Notes: a model not told the origin generated them from the letters alone. A DNA stretch of 56,279 nucleotides from an uncultured Candidatus Saccharibacteria bacterium (GCA_964443635.1 CAYUDJ010000001.1:1-56279); one strand, 5' to 3'. Counted from the stretch's first letter, positions 24,800 through 43,354 are shown. A program made the numbers and translations.

Positions 24800-25339
24800 A
24801 TGCTCTTTTTACGTCACGGTCATGCCACCAAACATAAGTTTGGTATTGATCTCCTTCGCCCCTTGTCTGAAGAAGGCATGGAAAAGGTTAAGAATATAGA
24901 ATTCCCCATTGAATTTGGCGATGTAATAATGTCTCCCGCCATGCGCACAAGGGAGACAGCACATATTGCTTTATATCAACAAAACAAACGTCTTAAAATG
25001 AATAAAATAAGAGACGTACGTTTTTCTCCCAATCTGTATGCTCCGATTCTTCTACCAGAAATGGACGCCATGTATACAAAGCACGGTGACCATGTACTGG
25101 GATATTATGAAGATAAGGACATTGCAAACACCATGCAGATAATAACGATGGCAACAGATGAGGTAATGGGACTTAACGCAGAGGATACCTTGGTTGTTGC
25201 ACATAGTGCAATCCTTAATTTTATCGCCCACCAAATATTTGGGTTTAAGGAGTTATTGGAGATAGATCTGGGAACTGCGGAAGGATTTTATGTTAAGAAC
25301 GGCTGGGATAAGGAGAATTATGAAATCATACGATTCTAA
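24800..25339 (+). CDS. Histidine phosphatase superfamily protein (SixA / phosphoglycerate-mutase-like, 179 aa)
   Basis: N-terminal RHG motif (LFLRHGHA), SP..RTRETA block and second His (VVAHSAIL). The size is closer to SixA-type than to dPGM. Confidence 0.7.
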   Translation: MLFLRHGHATKHKFGIDLLRPLSEEGMEKVKNIEFPIEFGDVIMSPAMRTRETAHIALYQQNKRLKMNKIRDVRFSPNLYAPILLPEMDAMYTKHGDHVLGYYEDKDIANTMQIITMATDEVMGLNAEDTLVVAHSAILNFIAHQIFGFKELLEIDLGTAEGFYVKNGWDKENYEIIRF

Positions 25340-25359
25340 TCCTAAAAACAAATTACTAT

Positions 25360-25397
25360 AAACCTGAAGATGAAAATTCTTCAGGTTTATTTTTTTA
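25360..25397. terminator. Bidirectional terminator shared by the phosphatase gene and the swivel-domain operon
   Basis: Perfect 11-bp stem aaacctgaaga / tcttcaggttt with 7-nt loop, then a T-run. Overlaps the stop codon at 25387. Confidence 0.7.
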
Positions 25398-26469
25398 CGG
25401 TAATGATTCCAGTATTCGTGTCTATCTCTACTGTATCTCCGTTTTTTAATATCTTGCTTGCAATTCCAGTGCCTACAATACAGGCGATATTCAATTCTCG
25501 TGCAGTGATTGCAGCATGGGAAAGTAGTCCACCGGTATCGGTGATGACGGCAGATGCTTTTGCAAGTACTGGCATGAGATCAGGATCCGTTGTTTCTGAA
25601 ACAAGTATTTCGCCCTGATTCATTTTATTCATTTCTTCCTGCATGGCCTGAGGTGAAGCGTAGTTTCTGTTCATGACGAAAACAGTGCCCGTAATGATTT
25701 TGCCTTTACCATGAGCAACCATACCTTTTATTACCTCAGTGACTACCTCTGGTGTATCAAAAACTTTGATGAGTTCTTCTGCCTCACTTCCCTGGTAAAT
25801 CTCATACCCTGATGACGTGTTTACAAAGATGTGACCTGACTTTCGATCAGATATGGTATTGTCTTGTATTTTTTTGCCATCAAAAAGATCGAGTAACTCT
25901 TTTTCCGTATGCCATTCAAGATCTGATTGTGAAATTCCAAATTGCTGAGACAGTTTCTCAATAGTAGTCGGTAAGTATCCTTCTTTATCAAAAAAGATAG
26001 GATTCAGTTCTGTGCGGATAACGTTCTTAAAATTCTGAACCAAATCAACAAGTTCTTGTGCTGAAGTGTTTGTTTCAGATTCTTTAAAGGCTACATCCCA
26101 ATACCGGTAATCAAAATATTCATACAGTCGACATACACGGCCCATTTTTTCAAACATTGCAATTACATCTTCTTTGGTAAGAATATCTTTTGCTTGGAAT
26201 ACAGGGATTTCTTTTTGTACCTGAGCTACAAGTGCTGTAAGTGTTACTATTACTTCCTTTGTCTTTTCTACGGTTCTCTCTGTGCCTTCCTTGTCCATAT
26301 TGCGGACTACATCATGTGAGAGATAGACGGTGTTTTTACCATTTTTGTGGTATGTAACGGAGTCACCAATCGGGTTATAGTAATGTGCCACGATATCCTG
26401 GAATATAAAGGTAGTACCTTCGGATCCATAGTTATAGACGTAATCTGATTTTTTGAGATTTGGAACCAT
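25387..26469 (-). CDS. Phosphohistidine swivel (PEP-utilizer mobile) domain protein, 360 aa, divergent N-terminal region (P1)
   Basis: C-terminal ...ILVSETTDPDLMPVLAKASAVITDTGGLLSHAAITARELNIACIVGT...GDTVEIDTNTGIITV. Catalytic His codon at 25516-25518. Confidence 0.85.
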   Translation of the reverse strand: MVPNLKKSDYVYNYGSEGTTFIFQDIVAHYYNPIGDSVTYHKNGKNTVYLSHDVVRNMDKEGTERTVEKTKEVIVTLTALVAQVQKEIPVFQAKDILTKEDVIAMFEKMGRVCRLYEYFDYRYWDVAFKESETNTSAQELVDLVQNFKNVIRTELNPIFFDKEGYLPTTIEKLSQQFGISQSDLEWHTEKELLDLFDGKKIQDNTISDRKSGHIFVNTSSGYEIYQGSEAEELIKVFDTPEVVTEVIKGMVAHGKGKIITGTVFVMNRNYASPQAMQEEMNKMNQGEILVSETTDPDLMPVLAKASAVITDTGGLLSHAAITARELNIACIVGTGIASKILKNGDTVEIDTNTGIITVKK

Positions 26470-26470
26470 G

Positions 26471-27871
26471 TTAGATAATTTTTACTACTCCTGTATTTGC
26501 ATCAACCTCGAGCGTGTCACCATCTTTAATAAGTTGGGTGGCAACCTTAGTACCAATAATACAGGGAATATTTAGCTCTCTGGATATGATTGCTGCGTGA
26601 CAGGTGATACCTCCCTCGTTAGTTATTACAGCTCCAGCCTTTTTCATGAGCGGAACAAACTCGGGGCGAGTCATACTGGTAACAAGAATGTCCCCTTGCT
26701 GAAATCCTTTATTTTCATGAGGGTCAAGTATTACCCGGGCAATTCCCTTCACATTCCCTTTGCAAGCGATCTGTCCTTTTATACTGTCAGTTTTTTCTAC
26801 TTTGTGTTCAATAAATTGAGTGAGTTCCTGGGTAGCGATATGTATATCACAATGCTCAGTTTTATAGGAATAATCTGGGTATGTTAAAAAAATACAACCG
26901 TTGCTTCGCTGCTCGATCTCATTTTTATTTTCTGAAAGATAGGTAACACCTTTCATATATTCATGCATTAAAACAAGGGGTGCTATTTTTATATCGACAC
27001 CGGCTCTTTCGAGCATTACTACTGACAATTCTGCAAACATTGTTTGCATCTGAGCGATAGGGTCTTTACGAAGATCGCGCATGTGCATCACTAGTTGCGC
27101 AAATTGAGCGATACTTCTTGAATCAGTGTCGAGTGTCTCAAGCCAGAGCAGTTGCTTGCGCATCTTCTCTTCTGAAGATATACGAAGATCTTCGTACTCT
27201 TTTTCCTTTTCAGGTAAATTTTGGCTGATATCTTCGAGTGCGCTGGATATGTCTGAATCGCTTTTTGTCCAAAAATAATCAGTGAATATAAATTTTGCCT
27301 TACGAATTTTGTTTAGAGAATTACCAGTGACTACTTCAAGGAGCTTCTTTAGTCGTCGGCCTTCGAAGGAGATAAATACATTTTCTATTGCCTGTTTCCA
27401 AATCGTATCAAGTGTAGCTTTATGCGCCGGGCCTATAACTGAAAGAATTTTCTCATAATCCACATTTTCAATATAGAGCGTTTCGTTCGCCATTGCCAAA
27501 AATAATTCGTTTACTTTCTTTGCATAGTTTTGCAAGTCAGTATCTGACAAGTCTGCTAGGTTTTTATCAGTAAATTCATCGTAGAGTGCCTGAACATTTT
27601 TTTCAAAAGAAAAATAGCCTTGCTCTAATTCTTTGATAGATGTTTCTTGATTAAAATAGTGTCTAAACTTATCCAGAGCAATCGCAATGTATTCCTTTTC
27701 ATTGAGAGCAAGATAGGTAGTGCGGTCTTTCGTTATACAAAAGATATGCAACGGGTGCACTTTCTCATGCCATGTGACTATCATGAATAAAGGTGAAAGT
27801 GGTGCTTGCAATGAAAAAACAGGATCTTCTCCAATAATGCTTTTGAATTCTTCAATAAGTTTGTATGACAT
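26471..27871 (-). CDS. Phosphohistidine swivel domain protein, 466 aa, helical N-terminal region (P2)
   Basis: C-terminal GDILVTSMTRPEFVPLMKKAGAVITNEGGITCHAAIISRELNIPCIIGT...GDTLEVDANTGVV. His codon at 26597-26599. Confidence 0.85.
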   Translation of the reverse strand: MSYKLIEEFKSIIGEDPVFSLQAPLSPLFMIVTWHEKVHPLHIFCITKDRTTYLALNEKEYIAIALDKFRHYFNQETSIKELEQGYFSFEKNVQALYDEFTDKNLADLSDTDLQNYAKKVNELFLAMANETLYIENVDYEKILSVIGPAHKATLDTIWKQAIENVFISFEGRRLKKLLEVVTGNSLNKIRKAKFIFTDYFWTKSDSDISSALEDISQNLPEKEKEYEDLRISSEEKMRKQLLWLETLDTDSRSIAQFAQLVMHMRDLRKDPIAQMQTMFAELSVVMLERAGVDIKIAPLVLMHEYMKGVTYLSENKNEIEQRSNGCIFLTYPDYSYKTEHCDIHIATQELTQFIEHKVEKTDSIKGQIACKGNVKGIARVILDPHENKGFQQGDILVTSMTRPEFVPLMKKAGAVITNEGGITCHAAIISRELNIPCIIGTKVATQLIKDGDTLEVDANTGVVKII

Positions 27872-27874
27872 ATG

Positions 27875-29359
27875 TTATAAAATTTTAACTATTCCAGTAT
27901 TCGCATCTAGTTCCACCATATCTCCATCCCTGAGTACTTTTGTAGCATTCTTTGTGCCAATGATACAGGGTTTTTTCATTTCTCGAGAAACGATTGCTGC
28001 ATGACAAGTGATACCTCCTTCGTCAGTAATGATACCCTTTGCCATGCGCATCAGTGGAACGAATTCAGGGCGGGTCATACCAGTCACCAATATATCCCCT
28101 TCTTCCATTTTGTGCGAGTCATTGTATGGATCAATGATAATCTTGACCTTTCCTGTCACGAGGCCTTTGGAGCCGATATTTCCTTTGATTTCGCGTATAT
28201 CGCTGCCTATTGCGAGACCATGCTGAGTCGTAAACAGATGCTCCATCTTTGTTTTGTTTGTATCCGCATCGTACTCTACGTATACCTCACCATCATCATA
28301 GTTTATAAAAAGTGCAAATCCGCCAGTCTGTCTTTTCTCAAGGTCTGTCTGAATGGATGAGATAAATGCAGGACCCTTAAGCATTTCTTCAAACGTAGCA
28401 AAATCAAGAAGTGAGACTGGTATGGAGAGTTCTTCACTAACTATCTTTACGTATCGATATATGGCTGTAATGGTCATACTCAATGTGTCACGTAATGAAT
28501 CGCGAAGCTTAATGATGTGTTTTGTATAGACAGCGAGCCTCTGCTCCTCTGCTGAAAGTGTTTCAAGCCATGCCGCATAGGCTGACTGCTTTGCTTGAAG
28601 TTCCTCTGCTATTTCCTGTCGGATATGGGCCCTATCCTCGGCGGTTGCATACTGAAGATATTCTTCCTGTACTTTCTTCTTTGCAGTTGCATGATCAAGT
28701 GATCCACCAAATCCTGCATAGAAATATTGTGTTTGCGTTGTGAGATCATCAAGTGATACATCACGATCAACCATATCAAATACTTTCAATGCACTGCGCT
28801 TATCAAATGAGAGACTTGCAGGCAAGGTCAGTGTCTCCCATATCTCGTCAAGTCGTTCATTGCTGATACTACTCCCTGCTTCAGCAAGCATGCTTTTCAC
28901 GAACTCTTTCTCAAAACCAAATGCATACCAACCATTGCAGTTCGTGTATCCTTCTGCGTCATTGATAGCTTGCAGGCTCTCTGCAATTTCTACAGCAGGC
29001 ATTGCTTTGATGCGTTCTTCTGTGAGCTCTCGATACAGCGTTTCAATCTGAGCAACATATGCTTGGCGCCCCTCTTCAAGTTCTGTAATCACTGACTGAT
29101 CATTCCAGTATTTCAAAAACACTTCTCGTGAGATTGAGTTGAAATGAGTCTCGGTCACCCAGTACGTACTACTTGTGCCTTTTGCAACGGAAAAAGAAAT
29201 ACACGGTATTGTTGTCTCAAACCATTTCTCAAAGTATTTCTTTTGAGTCCAGGCGAGCGAGTTGTTGAGGATGGTGAAGTTATGAACGCCATTAAAAAGT
29301 GTCTGGTCTCCGACTTTGGATTTGTAGAGTTCGAATAGGTTTTCGGCGACTTTTTGCAT
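27875..29359 (-). CDS. Phosphohistidine swivel domain protein, 494 aa, helical N-terminal region (P3)
   Basis: C-terminal GDILVTGMTRPEFVPLMRMAKGIITDEGGITCHAAIVSREMKKPCIIGT...GDMVELDANTGIV. His codon at 28001-28003. Confidence 0.85.
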   Translation of the reverse strand: MQKVAENLFELYKSKVGDQTLFNGVHNFTILNNSLAWTQKKYFEKWFETTIPCISFSVAKGTSSTYWVTETHFNSISREVFLKYWNDQSVITELEEGRQAYVAQIETLYRELTEERIKAMPAVEIAESLQAINDAEGYTNCNGWYAFGFEKEFVKSMLAEAGSSISNERLDEIWETLTLPASLSFDKRSALKVFDMVDRDVSLDDLTTQTQYFYAGFGGSLDHATAKKKVQEEYLQYATAEDRAHIRQEIAEELQAKQSAYAAWLETLSAEEQRLAVYTKHIIKLRDSLRDTLSMTITAIYRYVKIVSEELSIPVSLLDFATFEEMLKGPAFISSIQTDLEKRQTGGFALFINYDDGEVYVEYDADTNKTKMEHLFTTQHGLAIGSDIREIKGNIGSKGLVTGKVKIIIDPYNDSHKMEEGDILVTGMTRPEFVPLMRMAKGIITDEGGITCHAAIVSREMKKPCIIGTKNATKVLRDGDMVELDANTGIVKIL

Positions 29360-29361
29360 GG

Positions 29362-32300
29362 CTATTTCCCAATTATAGTCACAGTTCCGTTATCAGCATC
29401 TACTTCAACCACATCACCATCTTTAAGAATTTTTGTTGCTCGCTTGGTTCCGATAACACATGGCTTCTTGAGCTCTCGAGCAATAATTGCCGCGTGGCAA
29501 GTAATACCTCCTTCGTCAGTGATAAATGCCGAAGCCTTTTTCATCGCAGGTACGTATTCAGGACGAGTCATTGATGCGACAAGAATTTCGCCATCCTTAA
29601 AGTTATCAATCGCTTCGAGTGAAAGACAGACACGGATTACCCCGGTGACTTTTCCAGCAAAAGCTGCTTGTCCGTGGAGTATAGTCACGTCTTCATCAAT
29701 TACTTCTGAGAATTGATCAATGAATTCTTGTGCTTGTGAGCCCGTGAGTATTGTTCTTTGTAAAGTTTTTGGAGCGTAGTCAACAAAGAGTTTTGCGCGT
29801 TCAACGAGCTCATTTTGGAACGATGGATCAGTAGTCTTTTCAACCTCTTCGGGTAAAAGGAATTTGATTGACTCTTCAGATATATTGAGTTTTCGAGCCA
29901 GCGCATCCAATACGGGTTGGCTGTAGTAAATACTCGAGAGTATGTTTGCTTTGCGTTCATCTTGCCATGAGAACAAATGCGATAGGATTTCAGTGAAATC
30001 GTGTCGTCCCCCATTCTCTATTGTTTCGATATGCTCAGTTTTATTTTTTTGAGCCAGCTCTTTGATGAAATCAATGGAGATCGTGTTGCGACCTAAGTAC
30101 GAACTTTGTATCCAGGCATATTCTTTTTCAAATGCTTGCAATATCTCCTGCTCACTTTTTCCTGAATCAAACAATTCTTGAGCATACAATTCAGCTTTAC
30201 GTAGGAAGGACATTTCTGATGGTTTGATAGTCTGCGGATCAATCTTGTATTCCTGCTTTAATTTCTGCTCAGCAACATATGAGGCGCATTCTACGATGTG
30301 CGCAATCCCACCACTCGCCCACAATCTGTCCACCTGTTTTTTCAAAAGATCCTTCAGTTCATCGACAGAAAGCTGGTCCAAATCGGCCTCTTTGTATACA
30401 GCACCCAGTACCGCTTCTTGGTATGTATTTCTGTATTCAGTTATCAGTTTTTGGATATCGTCCAAGTTTTGTACTTTATTCCAAAATATTTCGCCGAGTT
30501 GTTGGTAGTCGTTCTTGTCGTAATGCCACTCTACATTTTTGCTGTGTGAAATACAGAGGAAGTGTTTATACGATAGATTCCATGGAAGTTTGAAGCCAGA
30601 AAGTGTTGCGACACTGCTGATGAAAAATGGATATGCGTTAAAACGTTGTACATCCCAATCAATATCCTTCAGCTGATCTACTAGAGATGTGCTTTTAGTA
30701 AGGATTTTGACGATTCCGTTATCCGCATCCACTTCTACCTCATCGCCATCGTTCAAAATCTTCGTGATATCTTTTATGGCAATAATACAAGGCTTGTTCA
30801 ACTCGCGCGAAACAATCGCTGCATGACTGGTGATACCACCCCTTCCTGTGAGAATCGCGGCAGCCATTCGCATAAGGGGCACGAATGTTGGAGATGTTTC
30901 TACAGCAACAAGGATTTCTCCTTCTTTAAAGTTCTCGAATTCCTTTGCTGAATTAATGATTCGTACTTTTGCAGTTACTTTGCCCTTTGAAGCACCGATC
31001 CCTCTGAGCTCTGTGGTTTGGTCATTTTTATGAGTGTCGATGTAGAGATCATAGACGATAGAATACTCCTTATCCTTTGCGGTCAGGATCGTTTCTACGC
31101 CATGAGTATCAACCACACAAAAGAACGGGTTCTTTCTTTCCATGACTTCATCTTTGTTTGCAATGTTCTCGTCAGGATTTTTAACAAGTTTTTGCAACTC
31201 TTGAGGTGTAAGGAGGAGGACATCTGAAAATTCTAAACCATTAACTTTTCCAATAGTTGTGAAAATGCTATGCATTCGTTCAGCCATCATCATCTCGAGC
31301 ATTGTTGCTTGTGCTCTGTAGTACGCAGCATTGACTGATACTGCTACCAATCCATCGCATTCATCAATATTGTTTTTGTACATTCGGTCAATATAGTTCT
31401 TCTCTACGACATTGTTGATTTCTTCAGCAAGTCTTTTCTGTGCGTACTCTATGTCGATAGGATCCCCGGCCCACTTGCTGATACGTGCCCATGAGAACTT
31501 CTTGAGATAGACAGCTATTGTATCCTTGAGTTCAGTGTCAGAGTCAATACGAGATACGAGTTCAGTCACTGAATGATCTGGGTATTTCTCGACATACTGC
31601 TCAGCAATGCGACGCATTGCTGCAACTTCTTCTTCAATCCATGATTCGCGTAAATAGGGATGAACTTTTTCAAACAGATCGGCTTCTGTTGATACAACGC
31701 CCATCTTCTTTGCAAGAGGTGAAATCTGGTTACCGATGACAGTGGTAGCAGTCCAAAAACCAATAAATTCTTGGTAGTTCTTAAACAGAGATTCAAAGTT
31801 AGTAAGGATGTAATCGTCATCTTTTTGAAGAGTAGTAATTATTTCTTTGAATAACTTGCTGCCCTCAGCGTCAGTTCTTAATGCCAAATCTTTTAGCTTT
31901 TCTCCTTTGTAGAGCTTTTCCAAATAGGCATTCAAGTTATTGAACGTCTTGATATCGTGAAATGCGTATCCATCAATCGTGAAAATTCCACCAAGATCGC
32001 AATTTTCTGTTATCCGCTTTACAACAGATGCATCACTCCAATGAGTAAACAAAGACCATATCAATGGAGATTGCACCCAGCGACCATCTTCGATCCAAAG
32101 ATCTTTATTCAAAATACGTAAATCTCGCAACAAATCATTGGTGCTGATAATCCTTACTATCCCATTATCTGCATCAACTTCAACGATGTCCCCATCCTTC
32201 AGGAGTGCAGTCGCAAATTTTGTTCCAATAACACAAGGCTTATTGAGCTCGCGAGCAACAATAGCGGCATGGCATGTGATACCACCTTCATCGGTAATGA

Positions 32301-32952
32301 TTGCAGCGGCTTTTTTCATGGCAGGGACGAACTCAGGAGTCGTCATTGCAGAGACAATAATGTCGCCTTCCTGGGCTTCATCAATCTGCTCTTTGCGTTT
32401 GAGAATGCGTACAACGCCCTTTGCATAACCTTTGTTACCAGCTTGCCCAACAAGTGTCGTCGCATCTGTTGGAGGAGTTTCAATTTCAAATACATAATCA
32501 TTGTGCAAAGCTCGGTATTCAGAAAGTGAACCGACAAAGAGTTCACTGCCATTCATGATGGATGCGCGCTTTCGGGCTTGGAGGATTTCTTTTGCAGGAG
32601 GATTGTCTATTTCATTAAAAAGTATGGTGCTTTCCAACCCCTTGAGTTCAGGATATATCTTTTGGAGACTGAGACGAATCATGTCGTCACTTGTGCCAAA
32701 GTAGCTATCCACATCACGGATCTTGAGTGCGCGTGTGCGTAGATCTGCTGGGGTGCGCTCATCCACACCAGAGTAGTACATGAAATCAAAAGCATACATG
32801 TAGTCATATACTTTCCGCATGAAATCTTTAAGTTCTTCTTTTGTAGTAACAAATTTCTTGTCCCAGTATTGTTTGATATCAGCAAGTTCACGCTCATGCT
32901 GGTCGAGCATATTGGGAATAAATGAAGGCTCTGCTTGTATCTTGACCTGCAA
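29362..32952 (-). CDS. Triple-module protein (1196 aa) with three phosphohistidine swivel domains separated by divergent helical regions (P4)
   Basis: Swivel domains at about aa 168-270, 650-752 and 1093-1196 (nt about 32143-32451, 30697-31005, 29365-29676), with GGITCHAAIVAREL, GGITSHAAIVSREL and GGITCHAAIIAREL. The ORF begins at TTG 32952; the first ATG is 14 codons later. Confidence 0.8.
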   Translation of the reverse strand: MQVKIQAEPSFIPNMLDQHERELADIKQYWDKKFVTTKEELKDFMRKVYDYMYAFDFMYYSGVDERTPADLRTRALKIRDVDSYFGTSDDMIRLSLQKIYPELKGLESTILFNEIDNPPAKEILQARKRASIMNGSELFVGSLSEYRALHNDYVFEIETPPTDATTLVGQAGNKGYAKGVVRILKRKEQIDEAQEGDIIVSAMTTPEFVPAMKKAAAIITDEGGITCHAAIVARELNKPCVIGTKFATALLKDGDIVEVDADNGIVRIISTNDLLRDLRILNKDLWIEDGRWVQSPLIWSLFTHWSDASVVKRITENCDLGGIFTIDGYAFHDIKTFNNLNAYLEKLYKGEKLKDLALRTDAEGSKLFKEIITTLQKDDDYILTNFESLFKNYQEFIGFWTATTVIGNQISPLAKKMGVVSTEADLFEKVHPYLRESWIEEEVAAMRRIAEQYVEKYPDHSVTELVSRIDSDTELKDTIAVYLKKFSWARISKWAGDPIDIEYAQKRLAEEINNVVEKNYIDRMYKNNIDECDGLVAVSVNAAYYRAQATMLEMMMAERMHSIFTTIGKVNGLEFSDVLLLTPQELQKLVKNPDENIANKDEVMERKNPFFCVVDTHGVETILTAKDKEYSIVYDLYIDTHKNDQTTELRGIGASKGKVTAKVRIINSAKEFENFKEGEILVAVETSPTFVPLMRMAAAILTGRGGITSHAAIVSRELNKPCIIAIKDITKILNDGDEVEVDADNGIVKILTKSTSLVDQLKDIDWDVQRFNAYPFFISSVATLSGFKLPWNLSYKHFLCISHSKNVEWHYDKNDYQQLGEIFWNKVQNLDDIQKLITEYRNTYQEAVLGAVYKEADLDQLSVDELKDLLKKQVDRLWASGGIAHIVECASYVAEQKLKQEYKIDPQTIKPSEMSFLRKAELYAQELFDSGKSEQEILQAFEKEYAWIQSSYLGRNTISIDFIKELAQKNKTEHIETIENGGRHDFTEILSHLFSWQDERKANILSSIYYSQPVLDALARKLNISEESIKFLLPEEVEKTTDPSFQNELVERAKLFVDYAPKTLQRTILTGSQAQEFIDQFSEVIDEDVTILHGQAAFAGKVTGVIRVCLSLEAIDNFKDGEILVASMTRPEYVPAMKKASAFITDEGGITCHAAIIARELKKPCVIGTKRATKILKDGDVVEVDADNGTVTIIGK

Positions 32953-32964
32953 CGTATCGAGAAT

Positions 32965-34110
32965 CTATGGTGTCGCACTAGTATTTTCCCATACTTCAAT
33001 AACACCATCGTTCATATAGAAAAGTACTGGTGGGACGTTCGGGTTTTGTGGGCCACCGTAGCGTACGAACTTGTTGAGAACTGTTTCGTACCAACCTTCC
33101 TCGATCATATAGGTGTAGTCACGCGTGTATTCCTTGATGAATTTGATTGAAGTATCTTCTACGAGAGCAGTAAGTGTGGTAATCGGTCGGCTCTGCACCA
33201 CATAGAACTTCCCTGCTTCAAATGCCCATTCGATATCGCATGGAAAGCCGTAGTGACGCTCAATGGTCATGATGATATTAGAAAATTCATGGATCTCGTC
33301 TTCGGTCAGTACCTGAGATGCTGCCTTTGCATCATCAAGGTTAATCCATTCATTCCCTCCTCCCTGTTTTCGATACATCGCGCGGGTCTGGTTTGAAACG
33401 TTGATATCGATGATGCGGCGTGGCTCTTTCTCAACAACATAACTGTCAGGAGTTACTGAGCCGGATACGATCGCTTCTCCGAGTCCAAATCCAGCCTCAA
33501 TGATGAGTTGGTTGCGATCTTCGGTAACCGGGTGCACAGAGAATGCAATACCGGACACTTCTGAGTTCACCATTTTCTGAACGACAACAGCAACGGAGAT
33601 TTTCGTGGTGTGAAGTCCTTTTTCAAAGCGATAAAAGATTGCACGAGGAGTAAACAATGATGCCCAGCAATGCTGAACCTTTTCAAGAAGAGTATCTTTG
33701 GTTGTGTTGAGGTAGCTGTCGAGTTGTCCTGCCCATGCGTGATCAGCACCGTCTTCTGCCGTCGCACTTGATCGCACTGCGACGAATTCACTGTCGAGTG
33801 CTGCAAACTGTGTCTCGATGTCAGCTGCAATGTCGGCTGGCATGTTTGCATGCTTGATGAGTCCTTGGATCTGTTCTGATGCTCCATCAATACTGTGCAC
33901 TGCCTTGTGATCAACTGCATCCAAAATAGCGTCAATCTCCTGGAGGAGCCCTGCCTTGTGGAGGAATTCATCAAATGTAGTAGAGAGGACGACGAAGCCG
34001 TCTGGTACCGGGATGCCGGCATTCATCATTTCACCCAGAGAGGCGCCTTTACCGCCGGCGATGAGCGAATCACCTTTGTTTAATTGACTAAATTTCCTGG
34101 TCAACTCCAT
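32965..34110 (-). CDS. Stand-alone ATP-grasp nucleotide-binding domain protein of the PEP synthase/PPDK/rifampicin-phosphotransferase superfamily (PPDK_N)
   Basis: GGKGASLGEM...GIPVPDGFV...VAVRSSATAEDG...AGQ..S...V..CWASLF..RAI.YR...MV.S..SG.AFS..P...IEA.FGLGE.IVSG.VTPD...IEWA...G.FYVVQSRPITTL. Ends with TAG in frame with the next gene. Confidence 0.88.
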   Translation of the reverse strand: MELTRKFSQLNKGDSLIAGGKGASLGEMMNAGIPVPDGFVVLSTTFDEFLHKAGLLQEIDAILDAVDHKAVHSIDGASEQIQGLIKHANMPADIAADIETQFAALDSEFVAVRSSATAEDGADHAWAGQLDSYLNTTKDTLLEKVQHCWASLFTPRAIFYRFEKGLHTTKISVAVVVQKMVNSEVSGIAFSVHPVTEDRNQLIIEAGFGLGEAIVSGSVTPDSYVVEKEPRRIIDINVSNQTRAMYRKQGGGNEWINLDDAKAASQVLTEDEIHEFSNIIMTIERHYGFPCDIEWAFEAGKFYVVQSRPITTLTALVEDTSIKFIKEYTRDYTYMIEEGWYETVLNKFVRYGGPQNPNVPPVLFYMNDGVIEVWENTSATP

Positions 34111-34120
34111 ATGACACCCA

Positions 34121-35239
34121 TTATACCTTTTTTTCGTATCTTGACACGTTCAGTATTATCCCCACCGCAGCCAAGGCAATAGCAAGTGAGCTTCCTCCGT
34201 GACTGATGAATACGAGCGGCACACCGGTCAGTGGGAAGAGTCCAACCAGAGATGCAATATTGAGGAATGACTGCGCCAATATGAGTGAGATAATACCTAC
34301 TACGAGATATCGTGAAAATGCATCTGGTGCGCGTATAGCAATCTTGTATCCACGGACTGCGAGGAATACGTACAGGATAACGAGGATCGTACTACCGAGG
34401 AATCCAAACTCTTCACCAAATACTGCGAATACTGAATCTCCTTGTGGCTCAGGCAGGTAGTTGAACTTCTGAACACTCTGCCCCAGTCCCCGACCAAAAT
34501 ATCCACCGGATCCAACAGCGATGAGTGACTGCTGGAGCTGGTATGACGCGCCTCGTGGGTCGCTCGATGGGTTGAGATATGTTGTGAGACGATCACGGAC
34601 ATATGGACGGAAAAAGACGACTGCAGCAAAACCGACGATACCGATACCGATGACAATCAAGATCTTCTTCCAGGCGACTCCAGATACAAACAACATGCCG
34701 CATGATGCAACGGTGATCAGAATCAAGCTCTTTGTATCAGGTTGACGAAGCAAGACTGCCGCAACAATGCCGAGCAATACGATCAATGGTGCGATCTTGT
34801 ATTTCACTTCTTCCTTTTTCTTGTGCGTCCATGCAAGCCATGAGGAAAGGTATATAACGAATCCAATTTTCAAGAGTTCTGCCGGTTGAAATGATAATGG
34901 TCCAATAGAGAGCCATCGGCGAGCTCCGCCATGGGAGAATCCGAGGTGTGGGATGAATACTGCTGCGGTGAGGATGAGGCTGGCGATGAATATATAAAAA
35001 GCGTGCTTTCTCCAAAACATGTACGGAATCTTTGTTGTCAGCCACAGGGCAAGTAGACCCCCGACGTAGCCAAATACTATTTGGTTGAAGAGAACGCCAT
35101 AGAACTTGGTCTCGCTCTTTGCAAGAATACCAAGACTTGCCGAGACAAAAGACAACAGGCCGATTGTACTGATCAATATGACAATACCAAAGAAATATCG
35201 ATCAAATGGTTTAAGAGGTTGCTTGGTGGCAGTTGGCAT
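34121..35239 (-). CDS. ftsW: SEDS-family peptidoglycan glycosyltransferase FtsW/RodA
   Basis: 10-TM profile and conserved blocks (LQPAELLKI, LLLRQPD, GGYFGRGLGQS, LPEPQGDSVFAV, FPLTGVPLVFISHGGSS). dcw context next to mraY. Confidence 0.85.
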   Translation of the reverse strand: MPTATKQPLKPFDRYFFGIVILISTIGLLSFVSASLGILAKSETKFYGVLFNQIVFGYVGGLLALWLTTKIPYMFWRKHAFYIFIASLILTAAVFIPHLGFSHGGARRWLSIGPLSFQPAELLKIGFVIYLSSWLAWTHKKKEEVKYKIAPLIVLLGIVAAVLLRQPDTKSLILITVASCGMLFVSGVAWKKILIVIGIGIVGFAAVVFFRPYVRDRLTTYLNPSSDPRGASYQLQQSLIAVGSGGYFGRGLGQSVQKFNYLPEPQGDSVFAVFGEEFGFLGSTILVILYVFLAVRGYKIAIRAPDAFSRYLVVGIISLILAQSFLNIASLVGLFPLTGVPLVFISHGGSSLAIALAAVGIILNVSRYEKKV

Positions 35240-36322: not shown

Positions 36323-36870
36323 GCAGTTTGAAGTGTTGTTACTGGTTCATCTTTTTTGCCAAGGAGTGCGTCTATTTTTTGCTTTGTTTCAGTATATTGG
36401 GGCAATTCTTCGATTGAACTCACCCCATATGACTGCAGGAGCTCAAGTGTTGGAGTATATGCAAGCGTTCTGCCCGCAGTTGTTGCCTTAATGAGTCCAC
36501 GCATCTGGAGTGCGCGGATACTATATGCAGAGTTGACCCCACGGATAAACTCGATCTCAGTTTTGGTAGCACCGCTATGATAGGCAATGATTGCGAGCAC
36601 TTCGGCACTAGCTTTTGAAAGATCCTTGGAGAGTTCTTCTTTACGAATGGTTTCAATCAGTGCTGTATGCTCAGGACGGATAACGAGTGCAACTTCCCTT
36701 TCATCTTTGACGAGCATGTATGCGTGTCCTTCGAGAGTTGCACCAAGCTCCGTTACAGCAGCTTGTATGTCTTCAGATGAAACATTCAGGCGTTTTGCAA
36801 GCGAAGAAATACTCTGCGGCTCGGCGGTGGCAAAAAGGATTGCTTGGAGTTGTAATGTGGTGTTAGACAT
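36319..36870 (-). CDS. scpB: Segregation and condensation protein B
   Basis: AILFATAEPQSISSLAKRL and IIAYHSGATKTEIEFIRGVNS..IR.L..RGLI blocks. Overlaps scpA by 8 nt and mraY by 4 nt. Confidence 0.85.
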   Translation of the reverse strand: MSNTTLQLQAILFATAEPQSISSLAKRLNVSSEDIQAAVTELGATLEGHAYMLVKDEREVALVIRPEHTALIETIRKEELSKDLSKASAEVLAIIAYHSGATKTEIEFIRGVNSAYSIRALQMRGLIKATTAGRTLAYTPTLELLQSYGVSSIEELPQYTETKQKIDALLGKKDEPVTTLQTA

Positions 36871-37639
36871 AGGATTCTTCGGCAGATTCTAGGTTTGGGA
36901 TAATCGGCACTTCATCATTTTTCTGAAGCGTGATATCACTGAACAAGTTTTCTTGTTCAGCGGCGACCAGTCCTCTGCGTACCAGCTCTAGCATACCAAG
37001 AAATGACACAATCGTGTAGACGCGTTGGCTTTTTTCATCAGCGTCGGGCGACTGTACGCGGATTGCATTGAACGAATACTGCATCGCGCGCTCCATACGC
37101 TCGGTTAGTGTCGCAAGCACATCAGATATTGAAATGGTCTTGAATACTCGTGCCTCAGGTTTTGAAGCAACCGGTACAGGTATTCGTGCAAGGGTTGCAT
37201 CAATAAGTCCTGGTAATATATCTGCTGTGATCTTCGGGTCAGGCGCAAACACAGGTGTATTTTGTCGCGCTATACCTCCGAGAGCTATCTTCTTGCCGTA
37301 TGTGCGGACGAGTTCACCTGATATATGAGAAATAATAGAGTACAGTGCAACACGTCGTTCGAGATCGGTAATACTTTCAGACTCTTCGGTAGTAAGTTCA
37401 AGATTTGGCAGGAGGGATCGTGCTTTTATTAAAATAAGTGTTGCCGCAACCGACAAGAAATTTGCAACCATATCAGGTCGCATGCCTTTTGCCTGAATGT
37501 ATGAGACGAAGTCGTCGGTGACGGCTGTAAGGGATACATCGCTTACAAAGAGTTTGCGTTTTTCGATCAACTCTAACAAGACCTCAATTGGTCCTTCGAA
37601 CTGTTCGTGTTTTATGAGAAATGTCGTATCAGTTTCCAT
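36863..37639 (-). CDS. scpA: Segregation and condensation protein A
   Basis: FEGPIEVLLELIEKRKLFVSDVSLTAVTDDFVSYI is the ScpA N-terminal signature. Confidence 0.85.
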   Translation of the reverse strand: METDTTFLIKHEQFEGPIEVLLELIEKRKLFVSDVSLTAVTDDFVSYIQAKGMRPDMVANFLSVAATLILIKARSLLPNLELTTEESESITDLERRVALYSIISHISGELVRTYGKKIALGGIARQNTPVFAPDPKITADILPGLIDATLARIPVPVASKPEARVFKTISISDVLATLTERMERAMQYSFNAIRVQSPDADEKSQRVYTIVSFLGMLELVRRGLVAAEQENLFSDITLQKNDEVPIIPNLESAEESYV

Positions 37640-37670
37640 GAATTCATACAGTATACCCCAAAATGTGAAA

Positions 37671-37696
37671 CGGGTATTCTTCTAGAAGAATACCCG
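37671..37696. promoter_or_regulatory. Perfect 26-nt palindrome upstream of scpA (candidate operator or structured element)
   Basis: cgggtattcttctagaagaatacccg is fully self-complementary and lies 32 nt upstream of the scpA ATG. Confidence 0.4.
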
Positions 37697-37768
37697 GGGG
37701 CGAATGTGATATGAAATTGTTTAAAAATGAACGAAAAGGAACAATAATAATGAAGGAAAGAATGGGGT

Positions 37769-37826
37769 GATATCTAAAAAGTTTTAGATATCGGGGGGTG
37801 TATACATATAAAGAATATATGTATAC
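37769..37826. repeat. Two adjacent perfect inverted repeats (11-bp arms each)
   Basis: gatatctaaaa-ag-ttttagatatc (37769-37792) and gtatacatata-aagaa-tatatgtatac (37800-37826). Neither is followed by a T-run on either strand. Confidence 0.5.
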
Positions 37827-38048
37827 AAAATAAAAAGTGCACGATGGTCCTGACGAATGTCAGATAAATACATTATGTGCAGACCAATTTGAGGGCTTGT
37901 AGTGCCGTGAATATGATGTGCATTTGCAGTGATCATATTCCCTTTTGGTTTGCTCATTTGAAATGAACGTTTGTGAATAGAGAAACTATCTACTCACACC
38001 ATATAGACGGCTGATACGGGGATATATTACAAAAAAACCAGGACTTTC

Positions 38049-38882
38049 TTATGAAATTTCGTCCTTCTTGTACACCCCGTAGACCCTCAATTCTTCTGTC
38101 AGAGGGGTTATGGCATCAATGGCAGCATAAAATTGGGCTACTGTGTCAAATTCGACATCCATATAAAAACAATATTTCCAGTCACTACCTGCGAGCGGAA
38201 ATGATTGCAATTTGCTCAAGTTTATATCCGCTCCTGCAACTACGGTGAGCACCTTGGCGAGGATTCCCTTTGAATGATCGGTATGAAAATATACTGATGC
38301 TTTGTTGGCATCAGCGGGGATCTCGTGTAGTCCATTCTTTTGTTGTAGGACAAGGAATCTCGTATAGTTATTTTTATATGTTTCGATATTTGGGTTAATA
38401 ATATCAAGGCCGTAGAGATCGGCGGCTCGTTTACTTGCGATCACTGCAATATGAGTACTTTTATGCTGGTGAATATGTCTTGCACTCATGGCAGTATCCT
38501 CAGACTCTACCAATTTCCAGGGGTGTTTGTTGAGGAAATCAAGACACTGCAAAAGGGCCATTGGATGAGAATGCACTTCACGGATGTCTTCCCGTTTAAC
38601 CCCTGGATTGACCATCAGGTTTTGATGGATCGGGAGATAGACTTCGCCGACGATTCTCAGGTCGCTTTTTTGCAATAAATTATAATTAGGCAAAATACTG
38701 CCAGCAATTGAGTTTTCAATGGCCATAACTGCCCCATCGCTTATAGTAGTATCCCCCGCCACCTTTACGACTTCTTGGAAATTTGAGCAGAATACGAGCT
38801 CAATATGTTCTCCAAAGAATCTTTTTGCTGCCTCTTCATGAAAAGATCCTTCAAGTCCTTGTATCGCGATTCTTTGGCTCAT
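38049..38882 (-). CDS. pheA: Prephenate dehydratase (PDT + ACT domains)
   Basis: IAIQGLEGSFHEEAA, ENSI.GS, TRFLVL motif and a C-terminal ACT regulatory domain. Confidence 0.85.
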   Translation of the reverse strand: MSQRIAIQGLEGSFHEEAAKRFFGEHIELVFCSNFQEVVKVAGDTTISDGAVMAIENSIAGSILPNYNLLQKSDLRIVGEVYLPIHQNLMVNPGVKREDIREVHSHPMALLQCLDFLNKHPWKLVESEDTAMSARHIHQHKSTHIAVIASKRAADLYGLDIINPNIETYKNNYTRFLVLQQKNGLHEIPADANKASVYFHTDHSKGILAKVLTVVAGADINLSKLQSFPLAGSDWKYCFYMDVEFDTVAQFYAAIDAITPLTEELRVYGVYKKDEIS

Positions 38883-38885
38883 AGA

Positions 38886-40223
38886 TTACTCTGACAAAAG
38901 TTGATCGATACGGTTGATGTCTCGCGGGAAAGCCGTCGCTTCTTTAATATTTGGGAGTCCGAGAAAGCGCGCAGTCAGACGCTCAAGTCCCATGCCGAGT
39001 CCTCCGTGTGGTGGAAGTCCGTATTTAAATGCCTGCAAATAAAATGAGAATTTTTCAGGATCAAGACCTTTCCATTTCATTTTCTCAACCAACTCTTCAT
39101 AGCGGTGTTCGCGCTGGTTTCCAGAAATAAGCTCAAGACCTCTGAACAACAAGTCATAGCACTTTGTTCGGCCTTCAACAGCGGGGTCATCCATTGCGTA
39201 AAATGGGCGCTTGGTTCGAGGATAGTTTGTAATAAAGATGAAGTCTGAGTTAAATTCTTTCTTGGCATATTCACAGAGCCATCGTTCATGTTCTGGGTCA
39301 AGATCTGGTTCCTGTGTGCAATCCACACCTGTTTCTTTAGTAATAAGAACTTGGGCATCTGTGAGCTTCATTGAAGGGAACATATCGCCATCTGGAATCA
39401 ATGGGAATGTCGCACCAATGAGTTCAAACTCCTTTGTGCATGTTTTTTTGAGGTGCTCAGTCACATGCCGAAGTAGGCGTGTTTCAAGCTTCATCACATC
39501 CTCAGGTCCTTCGATAAATCCCATCTCAAGGTCGAGTGATGTGTATTCGTTGAGGTGACGAGCGGTCGCATGCTTTTCCGCACGAAATACATTCGTAACA
39601 GTAAATACACGTTCAAATACTCCAACCATCATTTGTTTGTAGAGCTGTGGACTTGTTGCAAGAAATGCCTGTTTGCCATAGAAGTAATCAAATTTAAATA
39701 CTTCGGTACCTCCTTCTGCATCACCTCCTACGATTGCCGGTGCACGGAATTCAGTAAAGTTTTCTTGGGTAAGAAACTCTCGGAAAGCATGCAGGATGTG
39801 GTGTTGCACCTTAAATATAGCTTTTTCTTTTGGGCGACGAAGTGTGAATGGTCGGTAGTCGAGCAAGGTATCAAGGTTGAGCTCTGCATCAAGAGCAAAA
39901 GGCAATTCCTTTGCTTGGCTCAAAATAGTGATCGCGGTGACTTCAAGCTCAATATCGCCATTTTGTTTGTCAGCGACAATATTGCGTTCAGGGCGCTTGT
40001 TGACGATACCTTCTACTTGCACCACTGACTCAGGACGAGCTGTCTTTGCAATCTCGATGACCTCTGCACGGTTTGGTAGCACAACACCCTGGATCATGCC
40101 GCTCATGTCACGGAAGTCAAAAAAGACCATTTTGCCCTGGTCGCGACGGACATCAACCCATCCTTTCAAAAGAATCGTCTCCCCTGCGTGTTTTCCTGCA
40201 TCTCCAATATATGTTCTGTTCAT
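38886..40223 (-). CDS. aspS: Aspartate--tRNA ligase, archaeal/type-2 form (possibly non-discriminating); AsnRS not fully excluded
   Basis: Class IIb motifs: OB-fold N-terminus, FRAE...ARHLNEYTSLDLEM, GGLGMGLERL, C-terminal FPRD. About 445 aa without the bacterial insertion domain. Confidence 0.75.
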   Translation of the reverse strand: MNRTYIGDAGKHAGETILLKGWVDVRRDQGKMVFFDFRDMSGMIQGVVLPNRAEVIEIAKTARPESVVQVEGIVNKRPERNIVADKQNGDIELEVTAITILSQAKELPFALDAELNLDTLLDYRPFTLRRPKEKAIFKVQHHILHAFREFLTQENFTEFRAPAIVGGDAEGGTEVFKFDYFYGKQAFLATSPQLYKQMMVGVFERVFTVTNVFRAEKHATARHLNEYTSLDLEMGFIEGPEDVMKLETRLLRHVTEHLKKTCTKEFELIGATFPLIPDGDMFPSMKLTDAQVLITKETGVDCTQEPDLDPEHERWLCEYAKKEFNSDFIFITNYPRTKRPFYAMDDPAVEGRTKCYDLLFRGLELISGNQREHRYEELVEKMKWKGLDPEKFSFYLQAFKYGLPPHGGLGMGLERLTARFLGLPNIKEATAFPRDINRIDQLLSE

Positions 40224-40282
40224 AGTTTCCTCATTCTACTAGAAAACAGGTAAGAAAAAAAGCCCCGACATATATCAGAGCT

Positions 40283-40879
40283 TCAAGAGAAATGGGGTTC
40301 ATCATAACAGAATTGGTTGACCAATATTGTTGACTCTCTACCCATTCTCCAAGCAGTTGCTACCGGCATCTCGATGAGCTGTGCTGGCAGCGCTGGCTTG
40401 ATCGTCAGTACCCTGGTGTCAGGATTGTTGTATTCGACAAGCACTTCTCCGCGTTTGAGAGGAAGCGGCTCATGAACCAAAAAGAATTCAAATATTTCTG
40501 CATAGTCACCTAATAAGACGAACGCATGAATGAGAACTCGTTTTTCAAAATCCGTCAGTGTCTTGCGTTGGATCAGGTTGTGTTCTGGATCTGTTTCGCA
40601 GTAATACTGGGAAGCGACAATCTGGCCATTGATCATTGTCCACGCAGTTTCTGCGGCAGTGGCGATCACGGTGTCGTCGGCGCATGGGCTGATTGTCAGC
40701 ACACGGACCGCTGGATCAGTACGACCTACGAGCAGTTCCCCTGTTTCGAGGTGAAAATGGCTGTGTGTGCGCCGCAATCCAAACAGTCTGATCTGGTTGT
40801 TGTATTTTTTGAAAAAACGCAACAGCTCATCCACAATCGTTTGCTCAGGTACACTGAGCTGGAGCGAAGTATTTTTCAT
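40283..40879 (-). CDS. Hypothetical protein with internal two-fold repeat (198 aa)
   Basis: GELLVGRTDPAVRVLTISP...ATAAETAWTMINGQIVASQYYCE parallels GEVLVEYNNPDTRVLTIKP...MPVATAWRMGRESTILVNQFCYDE. Confidence 0.55.
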   Translation of the reverse strand: MKNTSLQLSVPEQTIVDELLRFFKKYNNQIRLFGLRRTHSHFHLETGELLVGRTDPAVRVLTISPCADDTVIATAAETAWTMINGQIVASQYYCETDPEHNLIQRKTLTDFEKRVLIHAFVLLGDYAEIFEFFLVHEPLPLKRGEVLVEYNNPDTRVLTIKPALPAQLIEMPVATAWRMGRESTILVNQFCYDEPHFS

Positions 40880-40944
40880 ATTCGTTGTTTTTTGAGGGTT
40901 AGGAAACGTTTTACTGAACGTACTCCTTTTTTAGGGAGGCGTCA

Positions 40945-40974
40945 ATAAAAAAAGCCCGGAGTGTTTCCGGGCTT
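40945..40974 (-). terminator. Intrinsic terminator of the MT-HExxH-GNAT-like operon
   Basis: gcccgga / tccgggc stem with 5-nt loop. An A-run on the plus strand gives a T-run on the minus strand. Confidence 0.7.
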
Positions 40975-41105
40975 CAATCTAAAAAGAAGTGCTATTTTGT
41001 CCGCTCTTTAATTATTAAGAAATTAGTATCATCACAAGCGTGATCGTATAACTTTGAAAGTCTTTCTAATAACTGATCAGTATGTTTTTTATACTGTTCA
41101 ATTAT

Positions 41106-41990
41106 TTATATCCAAAATGCCTGGATGAATCTTTGGGTATTGAATGTCTTGAATGATTCTTTCCTCCAGAGTTCAAAGGCATATGTCAGGAGCTGATCTG
41201 AAATAGGTAAGAAGTGTTTTTTGAAGTCGTTGTTGATTGATCCAACATTCATTTTCTGATACCCCAGTTCTTGCGCTATCTTTGCTTTCTCGTATGAGAC
41301 TTGAAGTCCGAGGTTTGTGTATCCGCGGAGTGTCTTGTTGAAGCCGCTCAGGCAGTATGTGACGCCATGTCTGATACCAATAGAATATGCCACTAGTGCA
41401 GGTCCATCGTATGCTGCTATACCGAAATACTGAGCGTCGTTGAACAATTCCAAAAACCGTTGGTCATTGGATGTCCGGTCAGTAAACTTTTCACTCACTG
41501 CCGCACGTTGTTGCGCCCATGTCCTCCAGAATTCCTTCAGGTCATGTGTAGGAATATTTTCAAAAGGCTTGAAAACAAGATGGGTATTTTGTCGGAGTGC
41601 CTGGTTATAGTGCTTTCTGATTCGCGTATCTTTTAGATTCACAAATGCATCGATATCCATGACAACTTCTACATCTTCAAGACTGTCTTCTTTACGAGAA
41701 TTTTCTACTAATAAATTATATGCAATGAATTGTGGATTAAACTGTTTTGTGAGTTCTGAGATAACCTCGCTGGGATACAAAGTAAACAATAACCGTAGTT
41801 CGTTATGTTTTGTCTTGTGGATGAAGAAATAAGTTCTATTTTCATTTGTAATGCTATAAAATTCTATCCCTATATTGTTCAAGAAGTTATGCATTACCTG
41901 TGGCTGGGTAAAGAACATCTGTGGGAGGTCTGAATTTCCGACCGCTGCCACTATTTTTTCGTACGAATCAAGTCTGGATATATTACTCAT
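41106..41990 (-). CDS. Hypothetical protein, tentatively GNAT-fold / DUF2156 (MprF C-terminal-like) acyltransferase
   Basis: Loose resemblance to DUF2156 blocks (L.DTRIRKHYNQALRQ; GIAAYDGPALVAYSIG). ATG 41990 overlaps the upstream stop (ATGAGTAA). Confidence 0.35.
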   Translation of the reverse strand: MSNISRLDSYEKIVAAVGNSDLPQMFFTQPQVMHNFLNNIGIEFYSITNENRTYFFIHKTKHNELRLLFTLYPSEVISELTKQFNPQFIAYNLLVENSRKEDSLEDVEVVMDIDAFVNLKDTRIRKHYNQALRQNTHLVFKPFENIPTHDLKEFWRTWAQQRAAVSEKFTDRTSNDQRFLELFNDAQYFGIAAYDGPALVAYSIGIRHGVTYCLSGFNKTLRGYTNLGLQVSYEKAKIAQELGYQKMNVGSINNDFKKHFLPISDQLLTYAFELWRKESFKTFNTQRFIQAFWI

Positions 41991-42627: not shown

Positions 42628-42628
42628 A

Positions 42629-43240: not shown

Positions 43241-43354
43241 GATCTTGTACATACTAGTTTGCCACAAAACCATTGAAAACAAAAGGTTTTATAATTTTCT
43301 GGGATTGCGTTTTATGAGATTTCGTTATATACTACTGGTATTAAAGAGGATAAA

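Follow-up and report, generated by a model that had tools for sequence, protein, structure and literature searches.

One ATP-grasp domain and six phosphohistidine swivel modules in a Saccharibacteria locus: a candidate one-to-many dikinase of Patescibacteria and DPANN archaea

How could a single nucleotide-binding domain serve several phosphohistidine carriers? The question is raised by a gene array on the minus strand of a 56,279-nucleotide (nt) stretch of DNA from an uncultured Candidatus Saccharibacteria bacterium (GCA_964443635.1 CAYUDJ010000001.1:1-56279; the whole stretch is hereafter called the window), in which one ATP-grasp domain is accompanied by six swivelling phosphohistidine domains. 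To our knowledge, the characterised swivelling-histidine dikinases (phosphoenolpyruvate (PEP) synthase, pyruvate phosphate dikinase (PPDK), glucan water dikinase, rifampin phosphotransferase (RPH), PigC, HpeHI, CreHI and PpsAB) each have one nucleotide site, one carrier histidine and one acceptor site. From the domain content of the array, the architecture of its relatives, and structural models of its variable domains, we hypothesize that the locus encodes a modular, RPH-type small-molecule dikinase working on a one-to-many principle, a reading to which we assign a probability of about 0.6.

The array occupies 25387..34110 and consists of five co-directional open reading frames (ORFs), all on the minus strand: P1 (32965..34110, 381 amino acids (aa)), P2 (29362..32952, 1196 aa, with a TTG start), P3 (27875..29359, 494 aa), P4 (26471..27871, 466 aa) and P5 (25387..26469, 360 aa), separated by gaps of only 12, 2, 3 and 1 nt. 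Pfam profiles place the PPDK_N domain (PF01326, E 1.4e-97) in P1 and in no other product of the array, and the PEP-utilizers (swivel) domain in three copies in P2 and in a single copy in each of the proteins P3, P4 and P5; PEP-utilizers_C, the triosephosphate isomerase (TIM) barrel of PF02896, has no match in P1-P5 at E<=0.1. The catalytic-histidine motif is intact in all six swivels (GGITCHAAI in four, GGITSHAAI in one and GGLLSHAAI in one). A preliminary description of the window, made from its sequence, had reported these ORFs, strands and gaps, one PPDK_N domain with six swivels and no TIM barrel, and the six intact histidines, and each of these points was recovered when derived anew.

Metagenome-assembled data with repetitive domain content might be expected to yield chimeric arrays or collapsed repeats, and the preliminary description had itself named artefactual orthologous loci as a concern. 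Identity among the six swivels is, however, so low (40-67% in protein and 64-72% in coding DNA) that they are to be regarded as old, diverged paralogues and not as collapsed repeats. Moreover, the full 8724 nt of the array are identical in an independent Logan assembly of SRR10036065, and the same architecture recurs across many phyla and sources. An error of assembly or annotation is in our judgement extremely improbable.

The one-to-many layout extends well beyond this genome. Homologues of P2 fall into at least 541 protein clusters at E<=1e-30, the best 120 of which were examined for architecture. These 120 are 660-2042 aa long, PF02896 is listed for none of them in the precomputed Pfam annotation, and about 100 consist of a single N-terminal grasp domain fused to two to five swivels, three being the commonest number. 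The named taxa are nearly all Patescibacteria (Moran-, Paceibacter-, Buchanan- and Parcubacteria) or DPANN archaea (Woese- and Nanoarchaeota), with two homologues labelled Flavobacteriaceae and Limnohabitans, and the proteins are called 'phosphoenolpyruvate synthase / PPDK' or 'PEP-utilizing enzyme' at the source. Flanking sequence was usable at ten loci (the window, L001, L004, L005, L007, L009, L014, L016, L017 and L019), and every one of them has exactly one grasp domain with three to eight swivels. In relatives the N-terminal ATP-grasp is followed by two to seven tandem modules per chain, each made of a variable domain and a swivel, and satellite genes for such modules commonly adjoin the grasp-bearing gene. 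At the extremes, a 3111-aa single ORF from Parcubacteria (L014, 1646-10981) joins one grasp to seven swivels; an archaeon (L019) has eight swivels over four genes, a 2388-aa ORF at 5028-12194 with four of them being followed by three module genes; and in the archaeal L017 a truly free 315-aa grasp gene lies some 4 kb upstream of module genes that have no grasp. The catalytic histidine is kept in 352 of 352 full-length swivels. Since all ten loci and about 100 of the 120 homologues are so built, one grasp to many swivels appears to be the rule in a large Patescibacteria/DPANN family, and as an architectural principle it is well supported; the preliminary description's proposal of one ATP-grasp serving several histidine swivels by RPH-like logic gains support accordingly from comparative architecture. 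Our searches of the literature found no description of multi-swivel proteins or dikinases, and a preprint on Saccharibacteria genetics does not mention them.

Each swivel of the array is preceded by a variable domain, the putative acceptor domain. The first of these, domain 'a' (family 0), is interrupted and is treated below; it leads to swivel a (GGITCH, His228 of P2, 32143..32457). Next on P2 come domain 'b' (family 4, 377 aa, 31012..32142) with swivel b (GGITSH, His710, 30697..31011), and domain 'c' (family 7, 338 aa, with a WQDERK motif, 29683..30696) with swivel c (GGITCH, His1153, 29365..29682). The P3 domain (389 aa, 28193..29359, with R286-D287...R290 and R343) and the P4 domain (362 aa, 26786..27871, with MRDLRKD) both belong to family 5 and precede GGITCH swivels (His453, 27878..28192, and His425, 26474..26785, respectively). 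The P5 domain (family 6, 245 aa, 25735..26469, with conserved Y31, Y116, K148, R152 and R209) precedes a GGLLSH swivel (His318, 25390..25734) of a subtype without Thr at position -2. The six variable domains of the window thus represent five families.

The 350 inter-swivel segments extracted are bimodal in length (about 235 and about 380 aa) and cluster into at least 14 families, which are mutually homologous by hhalign: in profile-profile comparison the long families are interlinked at 96-99.5% probability over about 335 columns, and the short families match one another at 100% and the long families more weakly. Together with a BLAST match of 2e-19 between the P3 and P4 regions, this bears out the earlier remark that the regions are related and much diverged. 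The conserved polar residues differ from family to family (in domain 'a' they include R10, D11, R145 and D148), an Arg roughly 35-55 residues ahead of the domain end being common to all five families of the window. Because the swivel subtype co-varies with the variable family (in family 6 position -2 is invariably Leu or Met, whereas in families 0 and 5 it is Thr), the variable domain and its swivel form one evolutionary unit. An exhaustive search with the family-5 profile among 1.84 billion proteins found 698 representative proteins at E<=1e-3, mostly stand-alone carriers of 450-500 aa, with some grasp-variable-swivel proteins of about 800 aa and some giants; by word-indexed searching, the P3 variable domain gave only four close proteins.

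Any family can take any position in a protein, and among 117 proteins almost all architectures are unique. All-distinct families occur in 93 of the 117, against 90.5 +/- 4.3 expected, so that combination is indistinguishable from random draws; the idea of complementary sets, in which duplicate families would be avoided within a protein, was rejected on the same count. Because combination is random and architectures are unique, the modules are better understood as acting independently than as steps of a collinear pathway. The earlier suggestion that the divergent domains would select different acceptors is a reasonable hypothesis, for which family-specific polar residues, the RPH-like fold and motif of one family, and random assortment count as indirect evidence.

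These results bear directly on a different view, in which the modules form an ordered His-to-His phosphorelay or an assembly line on one substrate or polymer, for example a glycan or a wall precursor. Such a system would suit the position of the window locus between ftsW and murG, the Ddl-like and Mur-ligase genes upstream in L004, and the resemblance of RPH subdomains to the phosphotransferase system (PTS) components EIIA and HPr (PMC4844700). A collinear pathway is ill fitted, however, by a composition and order of families that are essentially random, with nearly every protein unique, or by families that each conserve different polar residues, and the cell-wall cluster position is not conserved. 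Window 36863..49262 is collinear with the L005 backbone (CysRS-RecR-DnaB-TrpRS ... AspRS-ScpA-ScpB-MraY-FtsW), yet the L005 dikinase locus sits between TrpRS and AspRS, and the dikinase neighbours in L001, L007, L009 and L016 are unrelated. Since the backbone is shared and the dikinase site differs, gene order indicates that the locus has moved and that the ftsW-murG insertion is lineage-specific; a link to cell-wall synthesis drawn from these flanks was rejected for this reason. An ordered relay is accordingly unlikely, and we return to independently acting modules of RPH type.

For the array as a whole, the comparison with L001 (a Saccharibacteria relative, the closest with a long contig) is informative. 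The proportion of synonymous differences (pS) is saturated at 0.71-0.86, so the ratio of nonsynonymous to synonymous substitution rates (dN/dS) cannot be quantified; the nonsynonymous proportion (pN), taken for the grasp, domains 'a' and 'b', P3 and the swivels, is only 0.11-0.23. For domain 'b', 66% identical to its L001 orthologue, pN is 0.20 and pS 0.82. Because pN is this low despite saturated pS, the comparison indicates that the array has been under purifying selection.

The closest known small-molecule dikinases are RPH-Lm (PDB 5FBS, 5FBT, 5FBU, 5HV1) and the PRK06241 group, which includes PigC and RedH. RPH shares with the window proteins an N-terminal ATP-grasp, a helical substrate domain, a C-terminal histidine swivel and the lack of a TIM barrel, and converts ATP to AMP and inorganic phosphate (Pi) by a swivelling mechanism, as proposed here. 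The ATP-grasp domain of P1 (residues 1-318, 33157..34110) aligns with RPH-Lm residues 6-321 and with an archaeal PEP synthase, and keeps the GGKG Lys, the VRSSATAED Arg and the DIEW and VQSRP motifs, RPH Thr136 being Ser in P1; judged by this alignment, it retains the ATP-positioning catalytic residues of RPH and PEP synthase. The order grasp-substrate-swivel is likewise kept. The single-module layout is not: RPH, at about 865 aa, has one substrate domain and one swivel, whereas the window has six, three of them on an ancestral grasp chain of about 1580 aa.

The likeness may extend to the variable domains of the P3/P4 type. An AlphaFold2 (AF2) model of the P3 domain (predicted local distance difference test (pLDDT) 93.8, predicted template modelling score (pTM) 0.91) has Listeria RPH in all of ranks 1-6 of its Foldseek search of the PDB (probability 0.54-0.95), followed by unrelated helical proteins at probability <=0.14. 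An R-[DE]-x-x-[KR] motif lies 144-167 residues upstream of the catalytic histidine in 30 of 30 family-5 domains; in P3 and P4 it reads R-D-x-x-R/K and stands 160-167 residues ahead of the histidine, a candidate counterpart, by sequence and spacing, of the RPH motif. In RPH-Lm the distance from Arg666-Glu667..Lys670 to the downstream His825 is 159 residues, and the second phosphotransfer depends on both Arg666 and Glu667 (PMC4844700). In four window modules, moreover, NCBIfam alignments to RPH/PRK06241 models reach 60-200 residues upstream of the swivel. The resemblance of the P3/P4 type to the rifampin (RIF)-binding domain, as modelled, is suggestive but weak.

We propose the following mechanism. 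The single ATP-grasp would bind ATP and pass its beta-phosphate to a swivel histidine via pyrophospho-histidine, followed by loss of the gamma-phosphate. Six swivels would be available for charging, three on the ancestral P1+P2 chain and three on the satellites P3, P4 and P5; we infer that charging would take place in cis for modules on the grasp chain and in trans for P3-P5. Each swivel would stay paired with the variable domain immediately upstream of it, and the phospho-swivel would dock back on that domain and donate its phosphate, so that AMP, Pi and a phosphorylated acceptor result. Acceptors would differ between variable-domain families, small molecules being the default by analogy, and the adjacent histidine-phosphatase-family protein may dephosphorylate a product or reset a phosphohistidine.

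The C-terminal PEP-utilizer domain is a regulatory appendage in some pyruvate kinases, and the variable-plus-swivel units might similarly be non-catalytic, serving as regulatory or sensor appendages or as a phosphate buffer. Both the NCBIfam pyruvate-kinase model PRK06354 and the pyruvate kinase chains 2e28 and 3t05 do match the swivels; but invariance of the histidine across all full-length swivels, an RPH-like catalytic motif in family 5, a dedicated ATP-grasp that is always there, one per locus, and adjacent phosphatase genes all speak for catalysis and make passive appendages very unlikely.

Several observations weigh against the one-to-many dikinase reading. The Foldseek matches of P3 to RPH are weak (E 0.05-0.3, template modelling score about 0.3); the R-[DE]..[KR] motif is restricted to family 5 and absent from the other four window modules; PDB sequence-profile searches with variable families 5 and 0 gave nothing meaningful; and by Foldseek no PDB entry matches the model of the short family-0 domain (best probability 0.28). 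The short (about 235 aa) variable domain (model m39bd2e3cc959, of the orthologue of window 32458..33156) may, going by its model, have an undescribed fold or be a strongly reduced RIF-binding-like domain; the short domains differ from RPH in being without a solved structural relative.

Every NCBIfam score, too, lies far under the RPH and PEP-synthase cutoffs. P1 scores 320 bits against TIGR01418 (cutoff 739.75) and 326 against PRK06464 (cutoff 598), and P2 scores 325 and 349 bits, spread over its three swivel stretches; against the RPH models NF041857 and NF000283 (cutoffs 999 and 1700) P1 reaches 286 bits, P2 175 bits and the single-module relatives of about 800 aa 317-359 bits. P3-P5 score 83-94 bits against PRK08296 (cutoffs 578-730), in alignments that cover the swivel and at most about 40 preceding residues. 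RPH-family models match the variable domains only in the residues adjoining the swivel in those four modules, with scores three- to sixfold under the cutoffs. Because the scores fall this far short, the proteins would seem to work like RPH-type dikinases while standing outside the RPH, PRK08296 and PEP-synthase families. It is also sterically puzzling how three to seven swivels on one chain reach a single grasp site, and for the whole family the case is built from sequence, models and analogy.

The remaining points against the reading concern the integrity of the genes, in the window and in relatives. The preliminary description had spoken of a split system with a stand-alone ATP-grasp, P1 being that domain and nothing more; in fact the P1 stop is a TAG (32965..32967) in frame with P2, followed by four sense codons (ILDT) and then the TTG start. 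In L001 the corresponding gene is unbroken, 1650 aa long, with the grasp and three swivels. The DNA at the junction reads GCGACACCA-TAG-ATT in the window and GCGACACCA-TGG-ATT in L001, a single G-to-A change, and the protein reads ...ENTSATP*ILDTLQVK... in the window against ...ENSQATPWILDTLQEK... in L001; the Trp at this position is invariant in the three nearest homologues. The TAG falls within the first acceptor domain and not at a domain boundary. Domain 'a' (231 aa) comprises P1 residues ~319-381 (its N-terminal 63 residues, 32968..33156, collinear with the internal module of L001), five junction codons, and P2 residues 1-165 (the ILDT codons and these residues, 32458..32964, making up its C-terminal three-quarters). 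Family-invariant residues are shared out between P1 and P2, the tail of P1 carrying K, R-D and W-E, which are invariant in family 0. In its AF2 model (pLDDT 93.9) the L001 orthologue of domain 'a' (70% identical to the window) forms one compact domain, in which the Trp is located between a beta-hairpin and the following helix. Because the stop lies inside domain 'a', P1 and what had been taken for a 170-aa first variable region are two halves of one broken module, and the stand-alone ATP-grasp is, on this comparison, the product of a TGG-to-TAG change and not an evolved split. A long region does precede each swivel, as described earlier (170-420 aa), with the first being 231 aa instead of 170. 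The TAG is also present in the independent Logan assembly. Reassignment of TAG to sense was considered and rejected, 12 of the 51 long ORFs of the window terminating in it (the others in TAA, 36, and TGA, 3).

In this genome, then, the TAG has cut a fused gene in two: P1, with the grasp and one quarter of domain 'a', and P2. The cut has probably crippled module a; the other five would remain chargeable in trans if translation of P2 begins at the TTG, four codons downstream. Modules b and c appear to depend on this start, and P3-P5 have starts of their own and would need only the grasp in trans. No obvious ribosome-binding site, or Shine-Dalgarno-like sequence, lies ahead of the TTG, and the TAG may leave P2 untranslated. 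In L001 a pair of in-frame TAA codons, spaced four codons from each other, interrupts the variable domain of the P4 orthologue (7982-9409), and in L004 there are ORFs that are overlapping fragments, one of them a 100-aa piece with a swivel and nothing else; the array may be in partial decay. It was also seen that lesions recurrently hit different modules in related genomes. Decay, errors in metagenome-assembled genomes, or a tolerance of breakage that comes from module autonomy could each account for those in relatives.

Taken further, these lesions, with an invariant Trp replaced by TAG inside a compact domain and no recognisable start signal for P2, would make the locus of this genome a decaying remnant, in which the nonsense codon uncouples the grasp and kills P2 translation and the family is functional elsewhere. 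From the TAG onward, however, there is no additional stop or frameshift in the 1196 codons of P2, nor in P3-P5, and therefore the mutation is recent or tolerated. All six histidine motifs are intact and selection has been strongly purifying across the divergence from L001; P1 still supplies a grasp to P3-P5; and a free grasp gene is the natural configuration in L017. Decay of the window locus is a serious concern that we consider rather improbable, and we continue to favour a functional one-to-many dikinase.

Among known systems, a separate grasp protein charges a protein made of a RIF-like domain and a swivel in HpeHI, CreHI and PpsAB, which gives charging in trans a biochemical precedent, and in HpeHI the carrier alone can then pass phosphate between substrates (PMC12167813). 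P3, P4 and P5, each a substrate domain with a C-terminal swivel and no ATP-grasp, have exactly the architecture of the second subunit of these enzymes. The free grasp subunit as an evolved gene is seen in the archaeal L017 and not in P1. HpeHI, CreHI and PpsAB have one grasp per carrier and act on phenolics in the aromatic catabolism of free-living bacteria; the window family, by contrast, has one grasp for many carriers, a grasp normally fused to the first modules, and ultra-small symbiont hosts. In comparison with PpsA and PPDK, the ATP-grasp and swivel are closest in sequence to archaeal PEP synthase (8a8e) and share the GGxTCHAAI motif, including the regulatory-Thr position; the window family differs in lacking the PEP/pyruvate TIM barrel and in its multiple swivels, which lie C-terminal to a helical domain, whereas the PpsA/PPDK swivel is central. 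Enzyme I, HPr and EIIA of the PTS offer a likeness in their phospho-His carriers and in one energy-coupling domain that feeds several branches, but the donor in the window system would be ATP via an ATP-grasp and not PEP via a TIM barrel, the swivel alone is homologous, and no ordered relay is evident.

The likeness to the Hpe pathway, in which a phosphatase acts later, includes a phosphatase gene near the array. A gene at 24800..25339 (plus strand) encodes a 179-aa histidine-phosphatase-superfamily protein with intact RHG...SPxxRxxET...AHS motifs (Pfam His_Phos_1, 23 bits, cutoff 21.7). Histidine-phosphatase-superfamily genes lie within about 150 nt of a dikinase gene also in L001 (10960-11505), L014 (871-1500), L016 (9205-9855 and 15286-15924), L017 (7336-7974) and L019 (17744-18355), spanning bacteria and archaea; with the window this makes 6/10 loci, counted without a genome-wide background rate. 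Among these loci the histidine-phosphatase gene is the recurrent neighbour, and the ftsW/murG position is not conserved. A haloacid dehalogenase (HAD) phosphatase follows the multi-swivel gene in L014 and L016, and in L017 it follows a 478-aa swivel gene and a 98-aa ORF. None of the neighbouring phosphatases reaches a curated subfamily cutoff, with weak likeness to SixA, CobC and dPGM. From its position, the histidine-phosphatase protein of the window is probably an accessory of the dikinase system, and by analogy the kinase-phosphatase pairing fits dephosphorylation of a product, as in the Hpe pathway, or a reset of phosphohistidine.

A hairpin with a 13-bp stem (25358..25390), terminator-like on both strands, lies between the convergent P5 and histidine-phosphatase genes and closes the dikinase operon. 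At the other end, a promoter-like site (34120..34147, minus strand; GTGTCA-16-TATAAT, 10/12 matches) ends 10 nt upstream of the P1 ATG and within the 3' end of ftsW; it may be the locus's own promoter, and promoter-like sites in the region overall are no more numerous than in shuffled sequence. A link to anti-phage defence was rejected, as neither P1-P5 nor the histidine-phosphatase protein has a PADLOC match. Among relatives, a 285-aa protein is shared by L001 (14129-14986) and L005 (14811-15665), in which it is 65% identical and, in L005, directly follows the dikinase gene; it has no Pfam or NCBIfam match and is absent from the window. Elsewhere in the window, the 1340-aa product of the ORF at 1111..5133 (plus strand) combines five fibronectin-III repeats with a SASA/GDSL esterase domain and, at its C terminus, a peptidoglycan-binding domain, and probably acts at the cell surface or in interaction with a host. 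A NADAR-domain protein with a helix-turn-helix tail (11938..12819, plus strand) adjoins a gene matching phage GP30.3 (PF08010; 12907..13437, minus strand) in a stretch of lower GC content (0.37-0.39), which may be a mobile or phage-derived islet.

A wider and more tentative reading, which we hold to be possible but on balance doubtful, would see in these loci a combinatorial phosphotransfer hub of Patescibacteria and DPANN, in which one ATP-grasp charges up to eight shuffled cassettes, in cis and in trans, and each cassette has its own small molecule to phosphorylate, host-derived or antagonistic, so as to trap, activate or inactivate it. The cassettes would be gained and lost and appear exchanged across two domains of life, and the histidine-phosphatase and HAD phosphatases would complete the cycle. 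If true, the hub would give the superfamily its first dikinase of one-to-many type and a new principle of organisation.

A single ATP-grasp matched with three to eight intact carrier/acceptor modules would by itself change the view of this superfamily. The labels 'phosphoenolpyruvate synthase / PPDK' borne by these proteins inflate the gluconeogenic capacity inferred in metabolic reconstructions for the CPR (candidate phyla radiation) and DPANN. With at least 14 families that have high-confidence models, at least one of them without a solved structural relative, the acceptor domains are defined targets for substrate discovery. The proteins rank among the largest of Patescibacteria and DPANN archaea, organisms with very small genomes and without most biosynthesis, and an investment of this size implies that their function is important, perhaps in connection with life as a symbiont.

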